From: Octopus vulgaris
Lineage: Eukaryota
DNA length: 64,000 nucleotides
Direction of reading: 5' to 3'
NCBI GenBank assembly: GCA_951406725.2
Contig: OX597814.1
Coordinates: 204,538,001-204,602,000 of the forward strand
The position numbers were made by a program, and so were the translations under genes. How positions within the stretch are numbered: position 1 is the stretch's first letter; every line of letters begins with the position of its first letter. This document shows positions 3,543 to 62,949 of this stretch, piece after piece. The notes below the pieces were generated by a model. That model ran no database searches. It worked only from the letters and a program-made list of their open reading frames with translations, and was not told the origin of the DNA.

Positions 3543-5533
3543 GCCACATTGTTATGTGAAGTTTGGGTTCTAATGGGATAGACAACCAATATGAAAGCCA
3601 TTGTTATTGTTTATTGGATCCAGCCAGTGATGGTGTGATTTCTTCAAGGGTTGGAATTGGATGGTACTCTCTTTTTAATGCCTTGTTCAGGTCCCTTGGG
3701 TCGAGGCATATCCGTAGGGTACCATTGGGTTTTTCCTTGATCACAATTGAATTCACCCAGTCTGTTGGTCGTGTCACTTTGGTGATTATTTCTTTTTTTC
3801 CCATTCTGTCCAACTCTGTCTTCAGCTTCTCTTTTAGTTCTAGAGGGACGCGGCGAGGTGGGTGAACAATTGGTTTGATATTGGGGTCGACTGTTATATG
3901 GCATCGACATTTCACAAAGCACCCGACTGTATCGTCAAAGCATTCAGGGTACATGCTTATCAGTTCCTTTTTGTTTGTGATTTGTGGTCGGTCTTTGATA
4001 GGCATATCTCTGTCAATCCTGCTTGGAGCTGCTTTCACTTCAGCACTGATTGATACAATATTTAGCTTTTTGCAGGTATTGAGTCCAAGAATTGCTGGCC
4101 CTTCTGTTCTTGTGACATAAAAATAACACTTGATTGTTTTTCCTTTGTGTGTCCGTATGATAGTTGTTTTACCCAGTTGTGGAATCCTGGTACCTCCGTA
4201 CGCAATGAGGATTATATCACTTGGTGTGAGGATTCCTTCTTTGACTTTATCCCCTTCTGTCATGTGTTCTGGGAACATCTTTTTGTAGAGGTTGACAGGT
4301 AAGATATTACTCTGGGCTCCAGTGTCAATCTTCAGCCTTAAGTCAATGTTTATTCGTTTCTTACCAGACTTCTTTTGTATTCTTATTGTTGTGTATGCCT
4401 CATTTTTTCTCTGGTCGTCATTTCCCATCTCATGTACATTTATTGTGCCGACTGCCAAGAATTCCTCCTCTGAGGTGTTTTGTTCTTGTTGTTGGGCATG
4501 TATATCCCTTCTTCTATTTCCGCTCCTCTTTGAAAATTGGGGCTTGTTTTTCTGGGATTTTGTTAACCTACACATTTTTTCCCAGTGGTTAAGTTTTCCA
4601 CATGCTTTGCAGTGTGTACCGAATGCAGGACATTTCTTCCGGTTATCGAACTCATGCTCTGTACCACAGTACTGGCATGTTCTTTGTTTGCGGGTATGTT
4701 TTGTCCTGTGCCTAGATACAATATCTGCATGGCTGCCTAGTGAGCTTGTTTGTAAGGTAAGTGAGCCCATTTGTTTGGTAGTGGCTTCGAATGCTCTTAT
4801 AATGTCTACTGCTTCTATCAACTGGAGAGCGTCCTTACCTATGAGGGATTCCTGAACTTCCCATGTTAGTTGATCAACGATTCTTTCGTCCTTATTTTTG
4901 AATTTGCATTTTTCGGCAACATTCGTTAGTCTGGACAGGAAATTGTCAATCGTTTCTTGTGGGTCTTGTTTCAGGCCCTAGAATTCGTATCTGTGAATTC
5001 TATGGTTCGATCTGGGCTCTAGGTGCCTTTCAAATTTCTTTAAAAGTGTGTCTGGGTTATTGCAATCCGATTCTGACATATTCCGGCTATTGAATAGGTC
5101 TAGACCTTTATTGCCCGTCCATAATAGGATATAGCTTACCTTCTCATCGTCGGTTGTGCCTTTCAGGAAACTTTTGAAAGCTAGTTGAGTTTTCTGTTTG
5201 AATTTCTTAAATGCTTCTACGACATCAACGGAATCCCAGTTCATAATCGGATGTAGATTCATCTGTACGGCGACGGGGGTCGCCATCTTGGATCGTCGTG
5301 TATGTGCGTCCCCGAAGACGAAGCGATGTTTTGTTTGTTAAATTCCTGGTTCGTTGTGTTTCTGTTTTGTTGTAAAGGCAGTTTCCGATTAATTATTTAC
5401 CGCTGCCACATTGTTATGTGTAGTTTGGGTTCCAATGGGACAGACAACCAATATGAAAGCCATTGTTATTGTTTTACGTGTTTATTAACTATTCATGTTA
5501 CACGGACTTGTCAACATTCAGCGTAGTAATACA
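3543..5533 (-). mobile_element. Internally deleted Ty3/Gypsy LTR retrotransposon (5' LTR 5412-5533, partial LTR copy 3550-3612)
   Basis: 122 bp TG...CA LTR, adjacent PBS-like TGTGGCAGCGGT (tRNA-Leu-like 3' end), and a gag-pro-RT frame downstream. Confidence 0.9.
3604..5286 (-). pseudogene. Gypsy gag-protease-RT(N-term) frame with one in-frame TAG at 4978-4980, truncated in RT
   Basis: ORFs 4978-5286 and 3604-4821 share a frame. Two Cys/His knuckles (CQYCGTEH...C, CKACGKLNHWEKMC), protease LKIDTGAQSNILP, RT start PRRVP...EKPNGTLRICLDPRDLNKAL. Confidence 0.92.
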
Positions 5534-5983
5534 TTTTATACTTTACACACAGTTTGTACTGTTCACTAACAAAATTGTGCCAAAAGTGGGGATGTATTCT
5601 ATACAAGTGTGCCAACGTATACACACATATTTGAATGTGTAACACACATATTTAGGGTGAGGACAGCCGATGAAATCGGCCCAGTACGTGACTATGAGGG
5701 CGCATTGCTTTGTGGTTAGGGTATTGACTCACGATCGCAAGCTCGCGGTTTCGATTCCCCGACCGGGTGGTGTGTTTTGTTCTTGAGCAAAACACCTCAT
5801 TTCACGTTCTTCCACCCCACTCAGCCATAAACAAGTAACCCCGTGATAAACTGGCCTCCTGTTCAGGGGGAATGTTATGATCTCGGTCACTTACACATCG
5901 TGGAAACTGGGCAATCGGCCCTGAGCCCTAGAACTCGAGTCACTAATATCTATGGGACGAGGTGATGGTGGTGGTGGTGGTGG

Positions 5984-6019
<36 letters not shown>

Positions 6020-6505
6020 CGACGTTGTACTTGGCTCGTACTTTATTTATTTCACCGACTCTGCAATTTTGAGGGAAGGAGATTTATTCGAATACAATGA
6101 CCCCAGCCTTAGATTGGTTCTTCATTTCATCGACCCTGGAAGGATTTGACTTGGCAGGATTTGAACTTACAACGTAAAGAGTCAAAAGGAATACTGCATG
6201 GCAGTTTGCTACACGTTCTAATGATTCCAATCCACTGCTATGTCGACCCCGTAATAATGACGTGATTTGAACTCGGATACATTCTTTTAAAGTATCTAGA
6301 ACAAACATAGTTATTCGTGAAAGCGGAAGTGAAGGAGTGAACGGGGAAATAACCGTGAAAATGTATTTAGTTATGACGCCGGAGAACTCCTGCAATTTGC
6401 AAAGACCTGTTTCGAAGTAGTTTTGTTTCGATTGTAGCATGAATCCGGTTTAGATTCGAATCATAGTTCTCAGATTCTTCCTGTCTAGAATTATGACATA
6501 ATATA

Positions 6506-8829: not shown

Positions 8830-9522
8830 GGTGAAGCACGACCTTTGAACGTTGGGTCCCACAAAGGCAATAACATGAGACCGAGACCTCTGGAGATATG
8901 CTGTGATTGAGAAGACCCGGCGAGTAAAGTGAGGTCACAGTCGTAGCTTATACCAATGTCGCATAACCAGCCCATTAAAAAAATACCTTTGAATCGTCGG
9001 GCGACATACCTTGCTTGAGGAGACCTATTGAGTCAAGTAAAATCAAAAGTCAAAATCAGAATCTCAATCGAATCGAAATCAAAAACAGAAATTGTAGTTG
9101 TAGCCGATGCCATTGCCGCCTGACTGGCTCCCATGTTGGTGGCACGCAATAAGCACAATTCATGCGTGGGTCATTGCCAGTGCCATCTGACTGGCTCCCC
9201 GTACCGGTGACACATAAAAATCATCATCCGAACCTGGCCGATGCCAGTGCCACCTGACCGGCTCCCGTGCCAGTAGCATGTAAAAAGCACAATCCGAACG
9301 TGGCCGATGCCCAGCCCACCTGACTGGCTCCTATGCTGGGGGCACATAAAAAGCACCCACTACATTCTTGGAGTGATAGACATTAGGAAGGGCATCCAAC
9401 TGTAGAAACTCTGCCAGAGCAGATTGAGCCTGGTGCAGGCGCTGGATCTCCAGACCTCAGTCAAATAGTCCAACCCATGCCAGCATGGAAAACGGACGTT
9501 AAACAATGATGATAATGATGAT
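8830..9522 (+). mobile_element. RTE-clade LINE 3' end (ORF terminus, tandem-repeated 3' UTR, (GAT)n tail)
   Basis: Homologous to the 3' end of the RTE ORF at 36424-36660. Repeated ~60 bp GGCAC(G/A)TAAAAAGCACC units, ending GGACGTTAAAC(GAT)n. Confidence 0.8.
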
Positions 9523-10500: not shown

Positions 10501-10808
10501 ATATACTTATACGAACAATAATAAATTCAGTGATAATAAACTAATTACACTAATTACACTAATTACACTAATTACAATGTTAAGTATAACTGCATACCCA
10601 TACCCAAATACAAGGTTAATTAATTTTAGATAGTGCGGGTCAGTAGCAAAGACTGTCTGAGAAGCAGCTATACTGGTTTTATAACGCCTCTAACGATTGG
10701 TCGCTTGTCATACGAGAAGTAATGACCACATCTCGCTCAAATTATATCCCATCCTTAAGAAAGAACATAATTTGTAGCAAATCCCTGCCTCAATTTGATC
10801 TGTTTTCA

Positions 10809-12121
10809 GATCTTTTCCTTTTGATAGCCAGATTTCAACACAATTTCTAGTTAACTAAACACTTTAAAACTTCGTATACTGGTAGAATGTGCCAAAAGAA
10901 AACATTATTTTCACTTGGCTTTTTTGATAAATTTGTAATTTGTTTGTTTAACGAAGTTTAATTTTTCGAATTTTAACCAATCCTATGCTCCCTTTTGAGC
11001 TGAAATCATTTGCTGCGTTATCGATATGATAAACAAACGAGGGGGGGGATTGTGTTGGCATGTGCTAGAAACAACAGCCATATTTCTTAAATCGATGAAT
11101 TTCGTCGCCCAATAAAAATATTAACGATATTTTTTGAATATTTTCTTTATTTTTTTTTTTTTTACCAAAAAGGCTTCTCCCATGGTTTTGAAGGGCCAAA
11201 AACAACAAAAACAAAACAATAATATGCCTAAATCGGTCTAGAGTGGGATCTGAGGGTGCGTGGAGTGTGGGTCGTATTGTAAAAATTTGCGAAATATTTT
11301 TTCATTAAAGGATGCCCCAGCTTGTTGGAGGCTGTGATATAAATTGGGAAAAAATCCTCGACACCAGTACGTAATTAGTACTTAATTTATCGACCCCGAA
11401 ACGAAGAAACATGGATCCCCCATTTCTGGTTTATTTACCTTTTGTGTAAATTTGTTCCGGCAAGGGGCTCTATCGACACCAGTGCATGCGTGCGTAACTG
11501 GTACTTAATTTATCCCTAACCCTGACCATAACCCTAAACTTAACCCCTAATCCTGAACCTAACCCCTAACCCTAAACCTAACCAAAGCTAGCGACCAATG
11601 CCGGAAGGCTGTCACGAGATAGGGTTAGGGTTAGGTTTAGGGTTAGGGGTTAGGTTTAGGGTTAGGGTTAGGGGTTAGGGTTAGGGGTTAGGGTTAGGGG
11701 TTAGGGTTAGAGTTAGGGATAAATTAAGTACCAGTTACGTGCTGGGGCCGGTCTAAACAACGGCAGTAATTCGTTATCGATATTGATAAATAAACGTGAA
11801 TTTACTAATAATCGTAAAGAAAAAAAATCCCACCGTGGGGCCGGTAGGTTAGCCTGATATCGAACTCACGAACACTACATTACGAACAAAACGGATGGTG
11901 TCTCAGTTTTTAGATGCAGCAAATGATTTCAGCTCAAAAGGCATAGGATTGGTTAAAATTCGAAAAATTAAACTACGTTAAACAAACGAATTACAAATTT
12001 ATCAAAAAAGCCAAGTGAAAATATTGTTTTCTTTTGACACATTCTACCAGTATACGAAGTTTTAAAGAGTTTAGTTAACTAGAAATTGTGTTGAAATCTG
12101 GCTATCAAAAGGAAAAGATCC
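10809..12121. mobile_element. Non-autonomous long-TIR DNA element (Mutator/hAT-like) with an internal telomeric-repeat palindrome
   Basis: ~205 bp TIRs (10810-11016 and 11915-12120). CTGTTTTC duplicated on both flanks. Confidence 0.85.
11514..11718. repeat. Interstitial telomere-like arrays: degenerate (CCCTAA)n, ~36 nt spacer, (TTAGGG)n
   Basis: C-rich tract 11514-11583 and G-rich tract 11620-11718, read directly. Confidence 0.9.
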
Positions 12122-12449
12122 CTGTTTTCTTCCCAATTAGGAGGCTTTTGTAAACACAAACAAAATACATCGAGCGAGGAATGAACACAGTCATATATCA
12201 GCTCAGACACTATTGACAGTCGGAGGATAGGAACGACCGAATCTGCTCCTAATCTAAAAGTGGCTGGGGACACACATGTACCATCTTCTCCTCTACGCAG
12301 TCACATAAGTTGTTCAACTAAATCACTAAGATGAAAACAACATTTTCTTATAGAATCAAGCAATAAAATTAATCTCATTTTCCGACGTTATTCTATTAAT
12401 ATATTTTCTTGGAACAGTCATGTTCCATTTCCGCCCTTTATCAATAAAA

Positions 12450-21736: not shown

Positions 21737-21950
21737 GATAATAATCCTTTCTACCATAGGCACAAAGCCTGACATTTTGGGGCAGGGGTTAAGTTGATCA
21801 CATCGACTCCAGCACGTAACTGGTACTTATTTCATCGACCCCAAAAGGATGAAAGGCAATGACGACCTTGGTGGAATTTAAACTCAGAACATAAAGTTGG
21901 ATGAAATGCCGTTAAACATTTTACCTGCTGCCTTAATTACTACTATTACT

Positions 21951-23239: not shown

Positions 23240-23755
23240 TGATGCATTGGGCAATACGATATGCTTGAGTCAAGTAAAATCAATATCGTAGCTGGGGCAG
23301 GTGCTCTCTGGCTGGCTCCTGTGCTGATGGCACATCAAAGGCACACTGTCCCAATGTGGTTGAAACCAGGTTCACCTGGATGGCTACTGTGCTGGTGGCA
23401 CATAAAAACCACCTACCAATCGTGACTGATGTCAGTACCCGCTTGACTGGCTCCTGTGCTGGTAGCACTTAAAAAGCACCATTTGAACTTATTTGTTGCC
23501 AGGCTTGCCTTACCGACTCCCGTGTTGCTGGCATGTAAAAAGCACCAACCAACCATGACTGATACCAGTACCTCTGTACTGGTTCCTGTGCCGGTGGCAC
23601 GTAAAAAACACCATCTGAACATGATCGTTACCAGGCCCGCCTTACTGACTCCTGTGCCAGTGGCATGTAAAAAAGCACCCACTACACTCTCAGTGGGTTG
23701 GTGTTAGGAAGGGCATCCAGCTGTAGAAACTCTGTCAGACAAGACTGGAGCCTGT
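23240..23755 (+). mobile_element. RTE LINE 3' UTR fragment
   Basis: Same tandem GGCAC.TAAAAAGCACC units. Further copies at 24490-24842(+), 35660-36420(-), 42330-42930(-), 53300-53690(+), 54910-55520(-), 58940-59160(-) and 62480-62990(+). Confidence 0.8.
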
Positions 23756-24448: not shown

Positions 24449-24491
<43 letters not shown>

Positions 24492-24926
24492 AGCGCCGCC
24501 TCGACTGGCTCCGTGTCGGTGGCACGTAAAAAGCACCATCCGAATCGTGGCCGAAGCCAGTGCCACCTCGACTGGCTTCCGTGCAGGTGGCACGTAAAAG
24601 GCACCAATCCGACCGTGGCTGATGCCAGCCTCGCCTGGCACCAGTGCAGGTGGCACGTAAAAAGCATCCACTACACTCACGGAGTGGTTGGCGTTAGGAA
24701 GGGCATCCAGCTGTAGAAACATTGCCAGATAAGACCGGAGCCTGGTGCAGCCTTCTGGCTTCCCAGATCCCCGGTCGAACCGTCCAACCCATGCTAGCAT
24801 GGAGAACGGATGTTAAACGATGATGATGATGACGATGATGATATATATATATATATATATTTATAGCAGTAATAAATCTCTCAGCGAGAAATAAACTATA
24901 GCAGCATGGAATCGTGAAGTATATTT

Positions 24927-25140: not shown

Positions 25141-26045
25141 ATATATATATATATATATATATAAACACATGATATAATACCATCTAAGAATCCATAAGTC
25201 AGAAAAAACATGCAGTCATATACTTGTCATTAGAGTGGGCTTATTAATCGAGGTGTACTCTTTTATGTATCCACTATGGCCAATCTTGCCAATTGATTTC
25301 ACACTAGGGGTTGAATGGAGTGTTAGGTAACTGCCAAATTATGCAATCCGACTCTCTTCAGAGATTGCAGTTATGGGATGAAATATGGCGACTGGTCTCT
25401 ATTGTTGGAGGTGTCTGGTCTTAATTATTTTGTTTCATATGTTATTTTGGGCCAATTGGAAACTAAACTAATTTTTTTCTTTCTTATTTTCCAACAATGA
25501 GCAGTCATGAGGCAACTATTCTACTTCATCCTTCCTTTTTTTAGCTTTTAGGTCTTTGTTTCTTATTTCTTTACTACCCACAAGGGGCTAAACATAGAGG
25601 GAACAAACAAGTACAGACAAAGGGATTCAGTCGATTACATCAACCCCAGTGCATAACCGGTACTTAATTTATCGACCCCGAAAGGATGAAAGGCAAAGTC
25701 GACCTCGGCGGAATTTGAACTCAGACCGTAGCGGCAGACGAAATACCACTAAGCATTTCACCCAGCATGCTAACATTTCTGCCAGTTCACCGCCTTAGCT
25801 CTTAGGCCTCTGTTTTGTCTCGATAGAATGGACATGTGGTCGTCTTAAATCACAAGCAACATTAAACTGAACAAGAAATAAAAAAAGTATTGTAATTTGC
25901 TTGAAGTATTGTAATGTGTAAATGATAGAAATGTTTTTTCTTTAGAAGCAAAACCTTTAAGCATTGTGGGTTACAAATTAGGCAGAAATATGTAAGGTTA
26001 TGCCAATAAATACAAACAAAGAGAAGATATATGTCGGCTCTACTC

Positions 26046-26835: not shown

Positions 26836-28110
26836 GGTAGTGGTGGTAGTGGTGGTAGTGGTTGGGTGGCGGTAGTGGTTGGATGGTGGTGGTGATTGGG
26901 TGGTAGTAGTGGTTGGATGGTGGTGGTGATTGGGTGGTAGTAGTGGTTGGATGGTGGTGGTGATTGGGTGGTGGTAGTGGTGGGGTGGTGGTAGTGGTGG
27001 TGTGGTGGTATTAGTTGGGTGGTGGTAGTGGTGGTGGTGGTAGTGGTTGTGTGGTGGGGTGGTAGTGGTTGGGTGGTGGGGGTAGTGGTTGGGTGGTGGT
27101 AGTGGTTGGGTGGTGGTAGTGGTGGGGTGGTGGTAGTGGTAGGGTGGTGGTAGTGGTGGGGTGGTGGTAGTGGTGGGGTGTGGTAGTGGTTGGGTGGTGG
27201 TAGTGGTTGGGTGGTGGTAGTGGTGGGGTGGTGGTAGTGGTGGTTGGGTGGTGGTAGTGGTTGGGTGGTGGGGTGGTGGTGGTTGGGCGGTGGTAGTGGT
27301 TGGGTGGTGGTGGTAGTGGTTGGGTGGTGGTAGTGGTGGAGTGGTGGTAGTGGTGGGGTGGTGGTAGTGGTTGGGTGGTGGTAGTGGTTGGGTGGTGGTA
27401 GTGGTTGGGTGGTGGTAGTGGTTGGGTGGTGGTAGTGGTTGGGTGGTGGTAGTGGTTGGGTGGTGGTGGTTGGGTGGTGGGGGTAGTGGTTGGGTGGTGG
27501 TAGTGGTGGGGTGGTGGTAGTGGTGGGGTGGTGGTAGTGGTGGGGTGGTGGTAGTGGTGGGTGGTGGTAGTGGTTGGGTGGTGGTAGTGGTTGGGTGGTG
27601 GTAGTGGTTGGGTGGTGGTAGTGGTGGGGTGGTGGTAGTGGTAGGGTGGTGGTAGTGGTAGGGTGGTGGTAGTGGTGGGGTGGTGGTAGTGGTGGGGTGT
27701 GGTAGTGGTTGGGTGGTGGTAGTGGTTGGGTGGTGGGGTGGTGGTAGTGGTTGGGTGGTGGTAGTGGTGTGGTGGTGGTAGTGGTTGGGTGGTGGTAGTG
27801 GTTGGATGGTGGTAGTGGTGGGATGGTGGTAGTGGTGGGGTGGTGGTAGTGGTGGGGTGGTGGTAGTGGTGGGTGGTAGTGGTTGGGTGGTGTGGTGGGG
27901 TGGTGGTGGTGGTTGGGTGGTGGTAGTGGTAGGGTGGTGGTAGTGGTTGGGTGGTGGTGGTGGGGGGGTGGTGGTAGTGGTTGGGTGGTGGTAGTGGTTG
28001 GGTGGTGGTAGTGGTTGGATGGTGGTAGTGGTGGGGTGGTGGTAGTGGTTGGGTGGTGGTAGTGATTGAGTGGTGGTAGTGATTGAGTGGTGGTAGTGGT
28101 GGTAGTGGCG
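26836..28110. repeat. G-rich minisatellite, ~17 bp unit GGGTGGTGGTAGTGGTT
   Basis: Read directly. Explains the P/T/H-rich minus-strand ORFs. Confidence 0.95.
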
Positions 28111-35659: not shown

Positions 35660-36423
35660 AAGTGCCAGTAAGGTGACGCTGGTAATGATCATGCTCGAAT
35701 GGTGCTTTTTATGTGCCACTGGCATGGAAGCTAGTTAACTACTCTGGCAACGATCATGCTCGGATAGTGCCCTTAGCACTCCACTAGCACGGATGCCAGT
35801 CATCGAATTTGATTTCGATTTCACTTGCCTCAACAGGTCTTCACAAGCAGAGTTTAGTGTCCAATGAAGGAAAGGTATGCATAAGTGGGCTGGTTACACC
35901 CCTGGCATAGGCCACGAGGTTATGATCTCACTTGGCTTGTCGGGTCTTCTCAAGCACAGCATATTTCCAAAGGTCTCGGTCACTAGTCATTGCCTTGGTG
36001 AGGCCTAATGTTCGAAGGTCATACTTCACCACTTCACCAGGCTCCAATCTGATCTGGTAATGTTTCTACAGCTGGATGCTCTTTCTGATGCCAACCACTC
36101 CAAAAGTGTAGTGGGTGCTTTCTAAGTGCCACTGGAACAGGAGCCAGTCAGTGGGCCTGGCATCAATCATATTCGGGTAGTGTTTTTTACATACCACCGG
36201 CACAGGAGCCAGTCAAGGGGTACTGGCACTGGCTACAATTTGGATGGTGCTTTTTATGTGCCATCAGCCTGGGAGCCAGTCAGGTGGACCTGGCATCGAT
36301 CATGCTTGGATGTTTTTACATGCCACCAGAACAGGAGCCAGTCAGGGAGCACTGGCCATAGCTACAATTTTGGTTTTACTTGATTCAACAGGTCTTCTCA
36401 AACATATCATATTGCCCGATGCA

Positions 36424-38126: not shown

Positions 38127-39945
38127 GTAAGTAAGCGTTCAGATATTATTGCTTAGAATCATATTTCTCTCTTCTCTCCTCTCTCCACTCCCTTGTGTGT
38201 GTATGTGTGTGTGTATAGATGTATGTTTTCGCGGTGAGCTGGCAGAAACGTTAGCATGCCAGGCAAAATGCTTAGTGATATTTCGTCTGCTGCTACGTTT
38301 TGAGTTCAAATTCCGCCGAGGTCGACTTTGCCTGTCATCCTTTCGGGGTTGATAAATTAAGTACCAGTTACGCACTGGGGTCTATGTAATCGACTTAATC
38401 CCTTTGTCTGTCCTTGTTTGTTCCCTCTATGTTTAGTCCCTTGTGGGCAATAAAGAAATAAGAGGTATGTTTTCGCTCTATTTGTATATAAGTCACAGAC
38501 CAGAGATTCAATTCATTTCAGTTTTATCTGAGTGCATGGTATTAATAATCCAAAATAATGATGAAATATTGTTATCTACCATACTCGGTTTCAATCCGAG
38601 GTGAGTTGTTTCACCTGGTGCATGGTATTCAGGTGTCCTTTAATACCCAGCCTTGTGTAGGGAGCTATATCGGATATTATCCTGCAGCAAATTTGGTGTA
38701 TAAACAAAACACAAAACTTTGTTTATTATGGTATTATCAAAATTTGCTTATTATAATTATTTGGAATCTTTCCTGCTTGGCTGCACCTGTGGAAATTTTA
38801 ATGTTTAGTGAAAATTTTAAAATTTGATGTATTGGTGTAATTTTCCATGCTGAATCTCAGGAGATACTTCACAGTTCCAGAGGTTTAAATTCTGATGATT
38901 TTTACCTGGTCAGAAAACTGGATTTGGAAGCTGTAATTTTATGCATGACAGCAAGTGTTGTCAACTGTAAACAGATGAAATATTGGCAGAATTCTACTTT
39001 ATGCATGTCTCATATAACCCATCATAACTTTTTTTTCCTAATTTTCAGAAATTTTTTGTGAATTTAAATTCTACACAGGGAAATTCATATAATTATGCAA
39101 ATTCATAATTCATATAATTATGCAAAAAAAAAAAAAAAGTTTGCATGTGTGATTTAAGGTCAATTTAGCTGTTATATCTCATACCACATGTGTTTTAAGT
39201 ATGTCATGCTGCATGTGTTTTAAGCATTTAATAAGCGCCAAAAAGAACACATGGTAAATAGCTTGGTAACAGCTTGGTTTGTTACCAAAGAAACAGGTAC
39301 CTATATATCTGTGACTTTTGACTGGCTAAGATTACTCACAATTTGCAAATTTTAAAAAGCTGTTAACTCTTTATTTATTGATTTATAGTGAAAATGAATA
39401 TCATGTCAATGATCACTTTACAAAACTACACCAATATACCAAATATGAAATCAAATGGAACAAAAATTGAAGAAACTGAAAAGTGCCAACCAAACAGAAA
39501 AGATCTGTTATTTGTTTATCACACTATTATTCTCATTAAATTCCAGTCTAACATATGTTTCTGCTGGAATTTAATGAGAGTAATGCTATAAAAAACAAAT
39601 TTTGAAGATGTATAATTCTCCATTCTTGTTTGTGATGTCTTGATTATATACACTGTATACTGTGTGAAATCCAATGAAGTGAATTTGGGAGTTACTTATT
39701 GAGTGAAGCACCATTTAATTGTCTATCATTAGCAATTCTGTACATTTCCTATCATTCGATGTGGTTAGCGAGATCTTGATTATATCATAATGTTAATAAG
39801 TGACCCACTCAGATTCCAAATCAATTTTCACTTCGAATTTTGTGTAAACTGGCCTTGCAAACAGAGTTGGTACAGAAACAATTGTAAATGATCATTAAAG
39901 ACGTGTTAAAGTATTTCTTTGTCTTATTATTTGGATTACACACAC

Positions 39946-62473: not shown

Positions 62474-62949
62474 AAATATCAATGGAAACAGTAGTTGCCC
62501 ATGATACCTGTGCCAGGTGACACATAAAAAGCACCATCCGAACGTGGCCGTTGCCAGTGCCGCCTTGACTGGCTTCTGTGCCGGTGGCACATAAAAAGCA
62601 CCATCCGAACGTGACTGATGCCAACCCCGCCTCGATTGGCTTCTGTGCCGGTGGCACATAAAAAGCACCATCCGAATGTGGCCGATGCCAGCACCGCCTC
62701 GACTGGCTTCTGTGCTGGTGGCACATTAAAAAGCACCAACCAATCGTGGCCGATGCCAGACCCCTCTGGCACCTATGCAGGTGGGACATAAAAAGCACCC
62801 ACTACACTCGCGGAGTGGTTGGCGTTAGGAAGGGCATCCAGCTGTAGAAACACTGCCAGATCAGACTGGAGCCTGGTGCAGCCAGTCTGGTTTCCCAGAC
62901 CCCGGTCGAACTGTCCAACCCGTGCTAGCGCGGAAAACGGATGTTAAAC

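Follow-up and report, generated by a model that had tools for sequence, protein, structure and literature searches.

An outward-facing telomeric palindrome in a probable Merlin element of Octopus vulgaris, with a likely donor array on another contig

How do two arrays of telomeric repeats come to lie back to back inside a mobile element, pointing outward like the two ends of a linear chromosome? The question is raised by a 64,000-nucleotide stretch of the Octopus vulgaris genome (GCA_951406725.2, contig OX597814.1, positions 204,538,001 to 204,602,000 of the forward strand; hereafter the window). The original prediction, made from the letters of the window, had offered two answers: a mobile cassette that spreads telomeric repeats, or a relic of telomerase-mediated healing that resembles a mini-chromosome. 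Our analysis of the copies of this element and of a related host locus leads us to a reading that we consider probable, in which the element is of probable Merlin origin, template switching filled its interior with a patchwork of host DNA from a contig C16 locus, and the palindrome arose when copying jumped between inverted SINE pieces.

The element is non-coding and 1.3 kb long (Table 1). Its terminal inverted repeats (TIRs), 10809-11016 and 11916-12120, span 208 bp at 96% identity and its true bounds are 10808 and 12121, the right end reading ...GATCC and the left end having A in place of the family's first G. Inside it lies a second inverted repeat (11493-11739) in which a C-strand array and a G-strand array, separated by about 36 nt, adjoin the same SINE-like piece; this piece matches free copies at 38335-38382, 21803-21854 and 25640-25691 of the window and belongs to a dispersed repeat. 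The original prediction had described a TIR element with a flanking duplication, an inner repeat with outward arrays and the same SINE fragment at each array, and all of this is borne out by the TIR alignment, by the 8-bp target-site duplication (TSD) CTGTTTTC on either side of the element, by the coordinates of both arrays and by the alignment to the free SINE copies. The arrays sit internally, 390-700 bp from the element ends, and their order is the reverse of that at an end-to-end chromosome fusion, where (TTAGGG)n is followed by (CCCTAA)n. The G-strand arm is predicted to contain two canonical G-quadruplex motifs, and the cassette has nine matches to YTAGGGTTR, a TRF-type site. The cassette is also predicted to form a long hairpin (-84.8 kcal/mol, computed without a shuffle control), as any palindrome would be expected to do. 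Elsewhere in the window, related units of 66-68 bp form five short tandem arrays (9103-9356, 23389-23679, 24489-24666, 36115-36356 and 62508-62764), and there is a G-rich minisatellite with strong GC skew (26836-28100; about 75 copies of a 17-bp unit).

Table 1. Parts of the element and its flanking duplications, in window coordinates
Feature	Position	Strand	Remarks
Left 8-bp TSD CTGTTTTC	10800..10807	.	8-bp TSDs also in other copies
Left TIR, 208 bp, Merlin-type GGATC end, first base A here	10808..11016	+	
Probably captured host segment A	11016..11360	+	88% to C16 source (L229 923-1262)
SINE-derived tandem pieces	11358..11513	-	
Degenerate (CCCTAA)n array, 70 bp	11514..11583	+	Variants ACCTAA, CCCCTAA, CCCTGA
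Spacer, CpG-rich satellite fragment with 32-nt internal deletion	11580..11621	+	
Degenerate (TTAGGG)n array, 99 bp, 12 perfect hexamers	11620..11718	+	
Probably captured host segment B, SINE piece and unique tail	11718..11796	+	94% to L229 869-947
Filler, source not found	11797..11892	+	12-13-nt stretch (11862-11873) in common with sister subfamily junction
Right TIR (11916-12121) and 23-bp inner extension in common with sister subfamilies	11893..12121	-	
Right 8-bp TSD	12122..12129	.	

The spacer shares its ends with the two arrays, AACC (11580-11583) on the left and TA (11620-11621) on the right. Of the 28 exact matches to an 18-mer taken from the spacer, 17 lie in cassettes, and the other 11 belong to a CpG-rich satellite-like repeat that has no telomeric arrays; the spacer is a piece of this satellite from which the 32 nt between two GCG motifs have been deleted. 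As a structured RNA it found no Rfam match in five sources. The idea that the satellite is a subtelomeric repeat was rejected, there being no match at 20 contig ends or beside four other long telomeric arrays; a terminal array was present at only one of these 20 ends (the start of C22), so the check is a weak one. This satellite-like repeat is complex and unusually GC-rich (55-60%) for an AT-rich genome. It occurs at L034-L036 (C2:57.26 Mb), at L053-L054 (C22:50.78 Mb) and in six dispersed pieces, forms kilobase arrays with inverted blocks and likewise has no Rfam match.

The cassette is not confined to the window. We searched the genome assembly (2.8 Gb in 227 contigs), where the TIR gave 1809 first-look candidates, 40 of which were scored. 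The SINE-telomere junction has 25 exact matches spread over many contigs, compared with none for a control pattern. Because these junctions lie on many contigs and whole cassettes occur elsewhere with TSDs of their own, the palindrome is neither a product of chance nor an assembly artefact. We catalogued 22 cassettes at 21 loci (two stand in tandem on C28) and one single-arm remnant, and the other copies share the cassette, its SINE junction and a single spacer common to all. Both ends are retained in 14 copies of 1216-1428 bp; the 8-bp TSD is perfect in nine of these, matches at seven of eight positions in two and at six of eight in two, and in the remaining copy, on C24, it is perfect at an outer end, which if counted brings the perfect ones to ten. 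The mobile multi-copy cassette dispersing telomeric repeats that had been proposed from the window is thus borne out by these copies. With the arrays removed, pairwise distances average 0.055 (range 0.027-0.105), and 11 copies lie within 0.052 of each other. The tree of copies, from which the C28 copy was left out, is star-like, with nine of its 11 inner branches open. The small distances and the star-like tree suggest that the subfamily spread mainly in one burst. In the 17 copies of the majority type one arm measures 2-162 bp and the other 10-84 bp.

Public sequencing runs bear on the window locus itself. Contigs from three of them align up to the last base of the TSD, with 9 differences and 7 gaps, and then run on for 328 letters that are not those of the TIR; this evidence from the left side suggests that the site may be empty in these runs. 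Two further copies deserve mention. At L176 (C28:20,402,800-20,403,750) the two tandem cassettes lie in one truncated element, and at L177 (C18:83.683 Mb) the B side of the cassette copy carries a microsatellite-rich filler like that of a telomere-less sister subfamily, which suggests exchange between subfamilies.

The spacer is not always oriented in the same way. Relative to segments A and B it lies in one direction in 20 of the 22 cassettes and is reversed in the window copy, a feature that the original prediction had not recorded, and in the first of the two C28 cassettes, the second having the majority orientation. In the window the CTCTAA marker remains at the outer end of the B arm and the CCCTGA marker is now on the A side; because one stayed while the other moved, the exchange must have fallen within the arrays. 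The inner part of the window's left array is the arm that most copies have on the opposite side. The two reversed copies differ by a 26-bp indel, itself patchy among copies, and in array markers, and this sequence comparison suggests that their flips were separate events; the tree neither groups nor parts them.

To which superfamily does the element belong? The definition of Merlin given by Lopes et al. 2021 (PMC8101967) comprises TIRs of 24-462 bp, a 5'-GG end and a TSD of 8 or 9 bp. The TIR length of 208 bp falls in this range, GGATC stands on both ends of most copies and the TSD is 8 bp. The genome holds at least 150 matches to PF12762, with a score of 53.7 bits at the L117 locus; stop-free pieces of the open reading frame (ORF) scored 26.7 and 26.1 bits, just below the cut-off of 27. 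Among 60 loci examined, one family (L117, L124, L114) is linked to GGATC TIRs, and a search with the ORF of this family gave 52 matches from the 40 scored of 206 candidates. Thirteen loci are independent, at least 78% identical and contain the 5' part of the ORF; one 3'-only locus, a cluster of 3' fragments on C15 and loci below 78% were omitted. At nine of these 13 a GGATC-type TIR, 70-83% identical to that of the window, lies about 380-575 bp upstream of the ORF and faces it, and by these loci an IS1595-type DDE transposase is associated with related TIRs. It is the constant distance between TIR and ORF that counts, because GGATC MITEs are common and also adjoin unrelated Merlin loci by chance. 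Even the best partner TIRs, found upstream of the transposase genes at L138 and L139, reach no more than 80-83% identity with the left TIR of the window.

The GG ends, the 8-bp TSD and a transposase family with the same type of TIR make it probable, as far as sequence can indicate, that the window element is a non-autonomous Merlin, and the subfamily would have been moved in trans by this one transposase family. The original prediction had proposed a search for an autonomous partner, and this transposase family is the candidate, but none of the 13 extended regions combined two TIRs with an intact ORF and a TSD. The Merlin ORF copies that we read carry stops or rearrangements; in L172, where both TIRs are present, the left end is broken and the ORF has been rearranged. 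Several other candidates were rejected as partners: a transposase fragment on C7, 900 bp from a TIR match, lies outside the TIR pair, and L116, L125, L101 and L135 are chance neighbors or belong to another Merlin family. Merlin families elsewhere in the genome differ in their termini (GGCAC..., GGTTA...). At L117 (C18:64.461 Mb) the Merlin ORF is followed immediately by a 114-bp tandem array of many near-identical units (4210-6401 and beyond), and clusters of Merlin transposase fragments occur at L155-L161 (C15:74.48-74.51 Mb) and at C19:44.41-44.49 Mb.

The interior of the element has its likely source in a single-copy host locus, L229, at C16:14.33 Mb. Here segment B is followed by segment A, by about 590-640 bp of extra sequence, by a SINE tandem in opposite orientation, by an array and by a piece of the satellite. 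The array is one-armed, a single run of 933 bp of (CCCTAA)n that begins at the very SINE base at which the last SINE piece of the window element (11490-11513) meets the left array, and the satellite piece joins it at the same TA junction as in the element. A second SINE flank, inverted and without telomeric repeats, stands 1.2 kb from the array, and segment B still continues into native upstream SINE bases at the point where the element turns telomeric. The extra 590-640 bp are absent from every copy of the element, and a TCG microhomology marks that point. The 23-24-bp stretch that opens segment A and recurs in the window at 11773-11796 is single at C16. No GGATC TIR was found in the roughly 55 kb around the locus.

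Several comparisons connect this locus with the cassettes. The whole 101-bp junction of B and A is matched by C16 alone (one of the 40 scored among 137 candidates), the matches of element copies ending at position 88 or earlier. The satellite-array junction occurs 21 times, 20 times in element copies and once at C16. A 26-nt pattern of array variants has 25 exact matches, 15 in cassettes, six in the C16 array and four in other long arrays. The C16 variants CCCCTAA and ACCTAA are those of the cassette arms, both of which open with the C16 variant series; the one terminal array seen, at the start of C22, is richer in other variants. Like the parental copy of a Pack-TIR, C16 is TIR-less and 88-94% identical to the element over A and B, and microhomology is found at the breakpoints (TCG, GCG, AACC and the doubled 23-24-bp stretch), the short ones being given without a formal test against chance. 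Segment A and the array are not recognizable as transposable elements, and the cargo also includes SINE and satellite pieces. These similarities make it likely that C16 holds the donor array of the cassette. Its present sequence is not the exact template but that of a relative which has diverged or been rearranged: the first 14 nt of the spacer are missing, and identity over A is no higher than 88%, compared with 95-97% among copies. Public contigs at C16 are fragmentary, and on one side of the B-A junction they extend for just 20 letters, below the standard of 31. Other long interstitial telomeric arrays occur at L186 (C8:17.87 Mb), L203 (C17:54.14 Mb), L204 (C19:43.70 Mb) and L205 (C23:26.17 Mb); that on C17 immediately follows an assembly gap and could represent a chromosome end put in the wrong place. 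A CCAGG pentamer satellite (L225, L227, L203) fills two scaffold ends and borders a gap beside a telomeric array.

We envision the following scenario for the capture and doubling of this array. Telomeric repeats would first have been added at a break in the CpG-rich satellite and joined to the SINE tandem, producing a one-armed array, and the TIR-less locus at C16 has this one-armed form together with both flanks. Gap repair or fork stalling in an element with GGATC ends could then have copied the region through several microhomology jumps, with the array shortened and subsequently duplicated in inverted orientation. One pass would copy the satellite, the array, the SINE tandem and segment A; another would copy segment B as far as the SINE base at which the inverted homologue meets the array, and jump there. 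After this jump the array would be read in the other direction and joined to the satellite at AACC. The product would be an outward-facing palindrome in the order SINE, array, spacer, array, SINE, for which one original telomere addition suffices. The chimera would next have multiplied in the burst indicated by the TSDs and the star-like tree, presumably driven in trans by the Merlin transposase family. Slippage in arm length and the spacer flip in two copies are seen among the cassettes and would be the last steps, the flip perhaps through recombination between the inverted arms. Two observations do not sit easily with this scenario: at the left junction of the spacer 4 nt are in register with the telomeric repeat, as could also be expected from telomerase priming, and the capture model leaves unaccounted for the short outward CCCTAA or TTAGGG runs in the arms of several sister subfamilies.

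These runs bear on whether the arrays serve the element. Outward telomere-type sites could recruit a host telomere-binding protein that aids end pairing, escape from repair or silencing, or targeting, so that the palindrome is kept or regained by selection; we consider this unlikely. It would fit the predicted nine YTAGGGTTR matches and two G-quadruplex motifs of the cassette, and short runs of CCCTAA or TTAGGG, in differing contexts, are also found in three or more other GGATC subfamilies. Such arm runs were seen in MITEs at L080 (3879-4594), L084 (4538-4954), L086, L087, L090, L092 (2231-3047) and L068; they face outward in palindromic subfamilies and occur in at least two unrelated sequence contexts. 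However, a palindromic MITE puts any G-rich run on both arms, a geometry that needs no selection, and the cassette arms vary between 2 and 162 bp. Moreover, exact matches to the junction of an array-less sister subfamily, which also contains segment A, number 55 (one or more of them lacking TIRs), compared with 21-22 cassettes. Of the 30 loci that match segment A best, 17 belong to this subfamily and are without a cassette, and 25 transposase loci have 0-3 scattered hexamers each and no arrays. Since the array-less sister subfamily has more copies, no benefit of the arrays is shown, and they are most likely neutral cargo. In public RNA runs only 0.04-0.17 of the words were present. A broader version of the same idea, in which the Merlin clan repeatedly gains outward telomere repeats and host telomere-binding proteins help the excised element to survive, to pair its ends or to find its targets, strikes us as improbable; if true, it would amount to a cut-and-paste element disguised as a capped mini-chromosome with an invertible core.

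The array-less subfamily also touches on the source. We considered whether it derives from the cassette by deletion, as the common 12-13-nt junction hinted, but this idea was weakened and set aside when the same junction was found without TIRs 20 kb from the C16 source, in a 118-bp piece that is 97% identical to the sister subfamily's filler. By a rough estimate, such proximity would arise by chance about once in 1000 for 55 matches. The neighborhood of C16 thus probably served as a template more than once, or the 118-bp piece could be a stray fragment.

A second reading takes the resemblance to a mini-chromosome literally: telomerase would have capped both ends of a short satellite fragment, which was later inserted into the transposon. 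Both spacer junctions are in telomeric register, by 2 nt and 4 nt, a signature reported for telomerase-type insertions in PMC2246262, and the first 14 nt of the spacer are derived from the satellite yet missing at C16. The two arrays nevertheless meet their SINE pieces at an identical base, and the variant series of the one-armed array at C16 recurs in each of them; because both arms have this junction and these variants, the second arm looks copied. Two independent healings followed by two identical fusions are unnecessary to explain it, and the two-armed form is found only in element copies or their truncated remnants. The one-armed source largely refutes this reading, which we regard as quite improbable, and the picture of a mini-chromosome with two separately healed ends is not supported. 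The broader notion of a telomerase-healing relic survives in one respect: at the source, the TA of the satellite-array junction is in register with GGGTTA where satellite copies continue otherwise. Because only 2 nt are in register (by chance about 1 in 16), this sequence match gives weak support to a telomerase origin of the C16 array.

Alternatively, C16 could itself be a decayed and rearranged remnant of an element whose array later expanded, with the palindrome formed from the element's own telomere-like arm motif. The 88% identity, the missing part of the spacer and the native short CCCTAA runs of sister MITEs would agree with such a history. The C16 locus, however, has native SINE sequence at the B junction, an undoubled stretch, extra sequence at TCG and no trace of a TIR, each of which would require a reversion, and we judge a remnant very unlikely. 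As for a fold-back chimera of long reads, an error to which telomeric-repeat palindromes are prone, the chance is negligible: the 22 cassettes lie on many contigs with their own TSDs, substitutions and arm lengths, and a contig from one public run spans the left flank and 30 bases of the element, and so the left insertion junction, with one difference, although the flipped orientation of the window copy is known solely from the assembly.

Copying from a host array by template switching, our preferred reading, places the element among several known systems. The TBE elements of Oxytricha are also DNA transposons with outward-facing telomeric repeats. In TBEs these repeats form the very ends of autonomous elements, whereas here the arrays are internal cargo of a non-coding element whose termini are GGATC TIRs. 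In open-access full text, a scope that leaves out Repbase and Dfam, we found no prior description of an element of this kind. Short interstitial telomeric sequences (ITSs) inserted at breaks were described by Nergadze et al. 2007 (PMC2246262), and the source array, with its 2 nt in register at the satellite junction, is similar to the insertions reported there. Those, however, are single, one-directional and immobile, and here the array has been copied, doubled and dispersed. The review PMC6410037 presents a mobile-element route to ITSs as a possibility, supported by ITSs flanked by mobile elements. The window element offers a concrete case of that route at the level of sequence, with donor, carrier and about 20 dispersed copies identified. 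Internal tandem repeats are known in Merlin families, and Merlin has been proposed to spread tandem repeats (PMC8101967, in whose main text the string "telomer" does not occur); the repeat described here differs from those reported there in being telomeric, palindromic and traced to a host locus.

The closest parallel is with the multicopy Pack-TIRs and the FoSTeST model of Tan et al. 2021 (PMC8277862). As in the elements described there, host DNA lies within a TIR element, a parent locus can be identified, the breakpoints have microhomology, and copies amplified by transposition lie far from the parent. Unlike that cargo, which is gene sequence, the cargo here consists of a telomeric array with satellite and SINE pieces and has an internal inverted duplication. 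Neither "Merlin" nor "octopus" occurs in the main text of that paper, and Pack-type capture appears to be extended to Merlin by the present case. An outward telomeric palindrome can thus form without chromosome fusion or double healing, which matters wherever such scars are read as karyotype history, and the copies provide a natural series for studying the inversion and breakage of short telomeric palindromes and any binding of telomere proteins to them. Taken together, the element is best described as probably a Merlin Pack-TIR that carries a duplicated interstitial telomeric array, the source of which has been traced, and known processes explain it.
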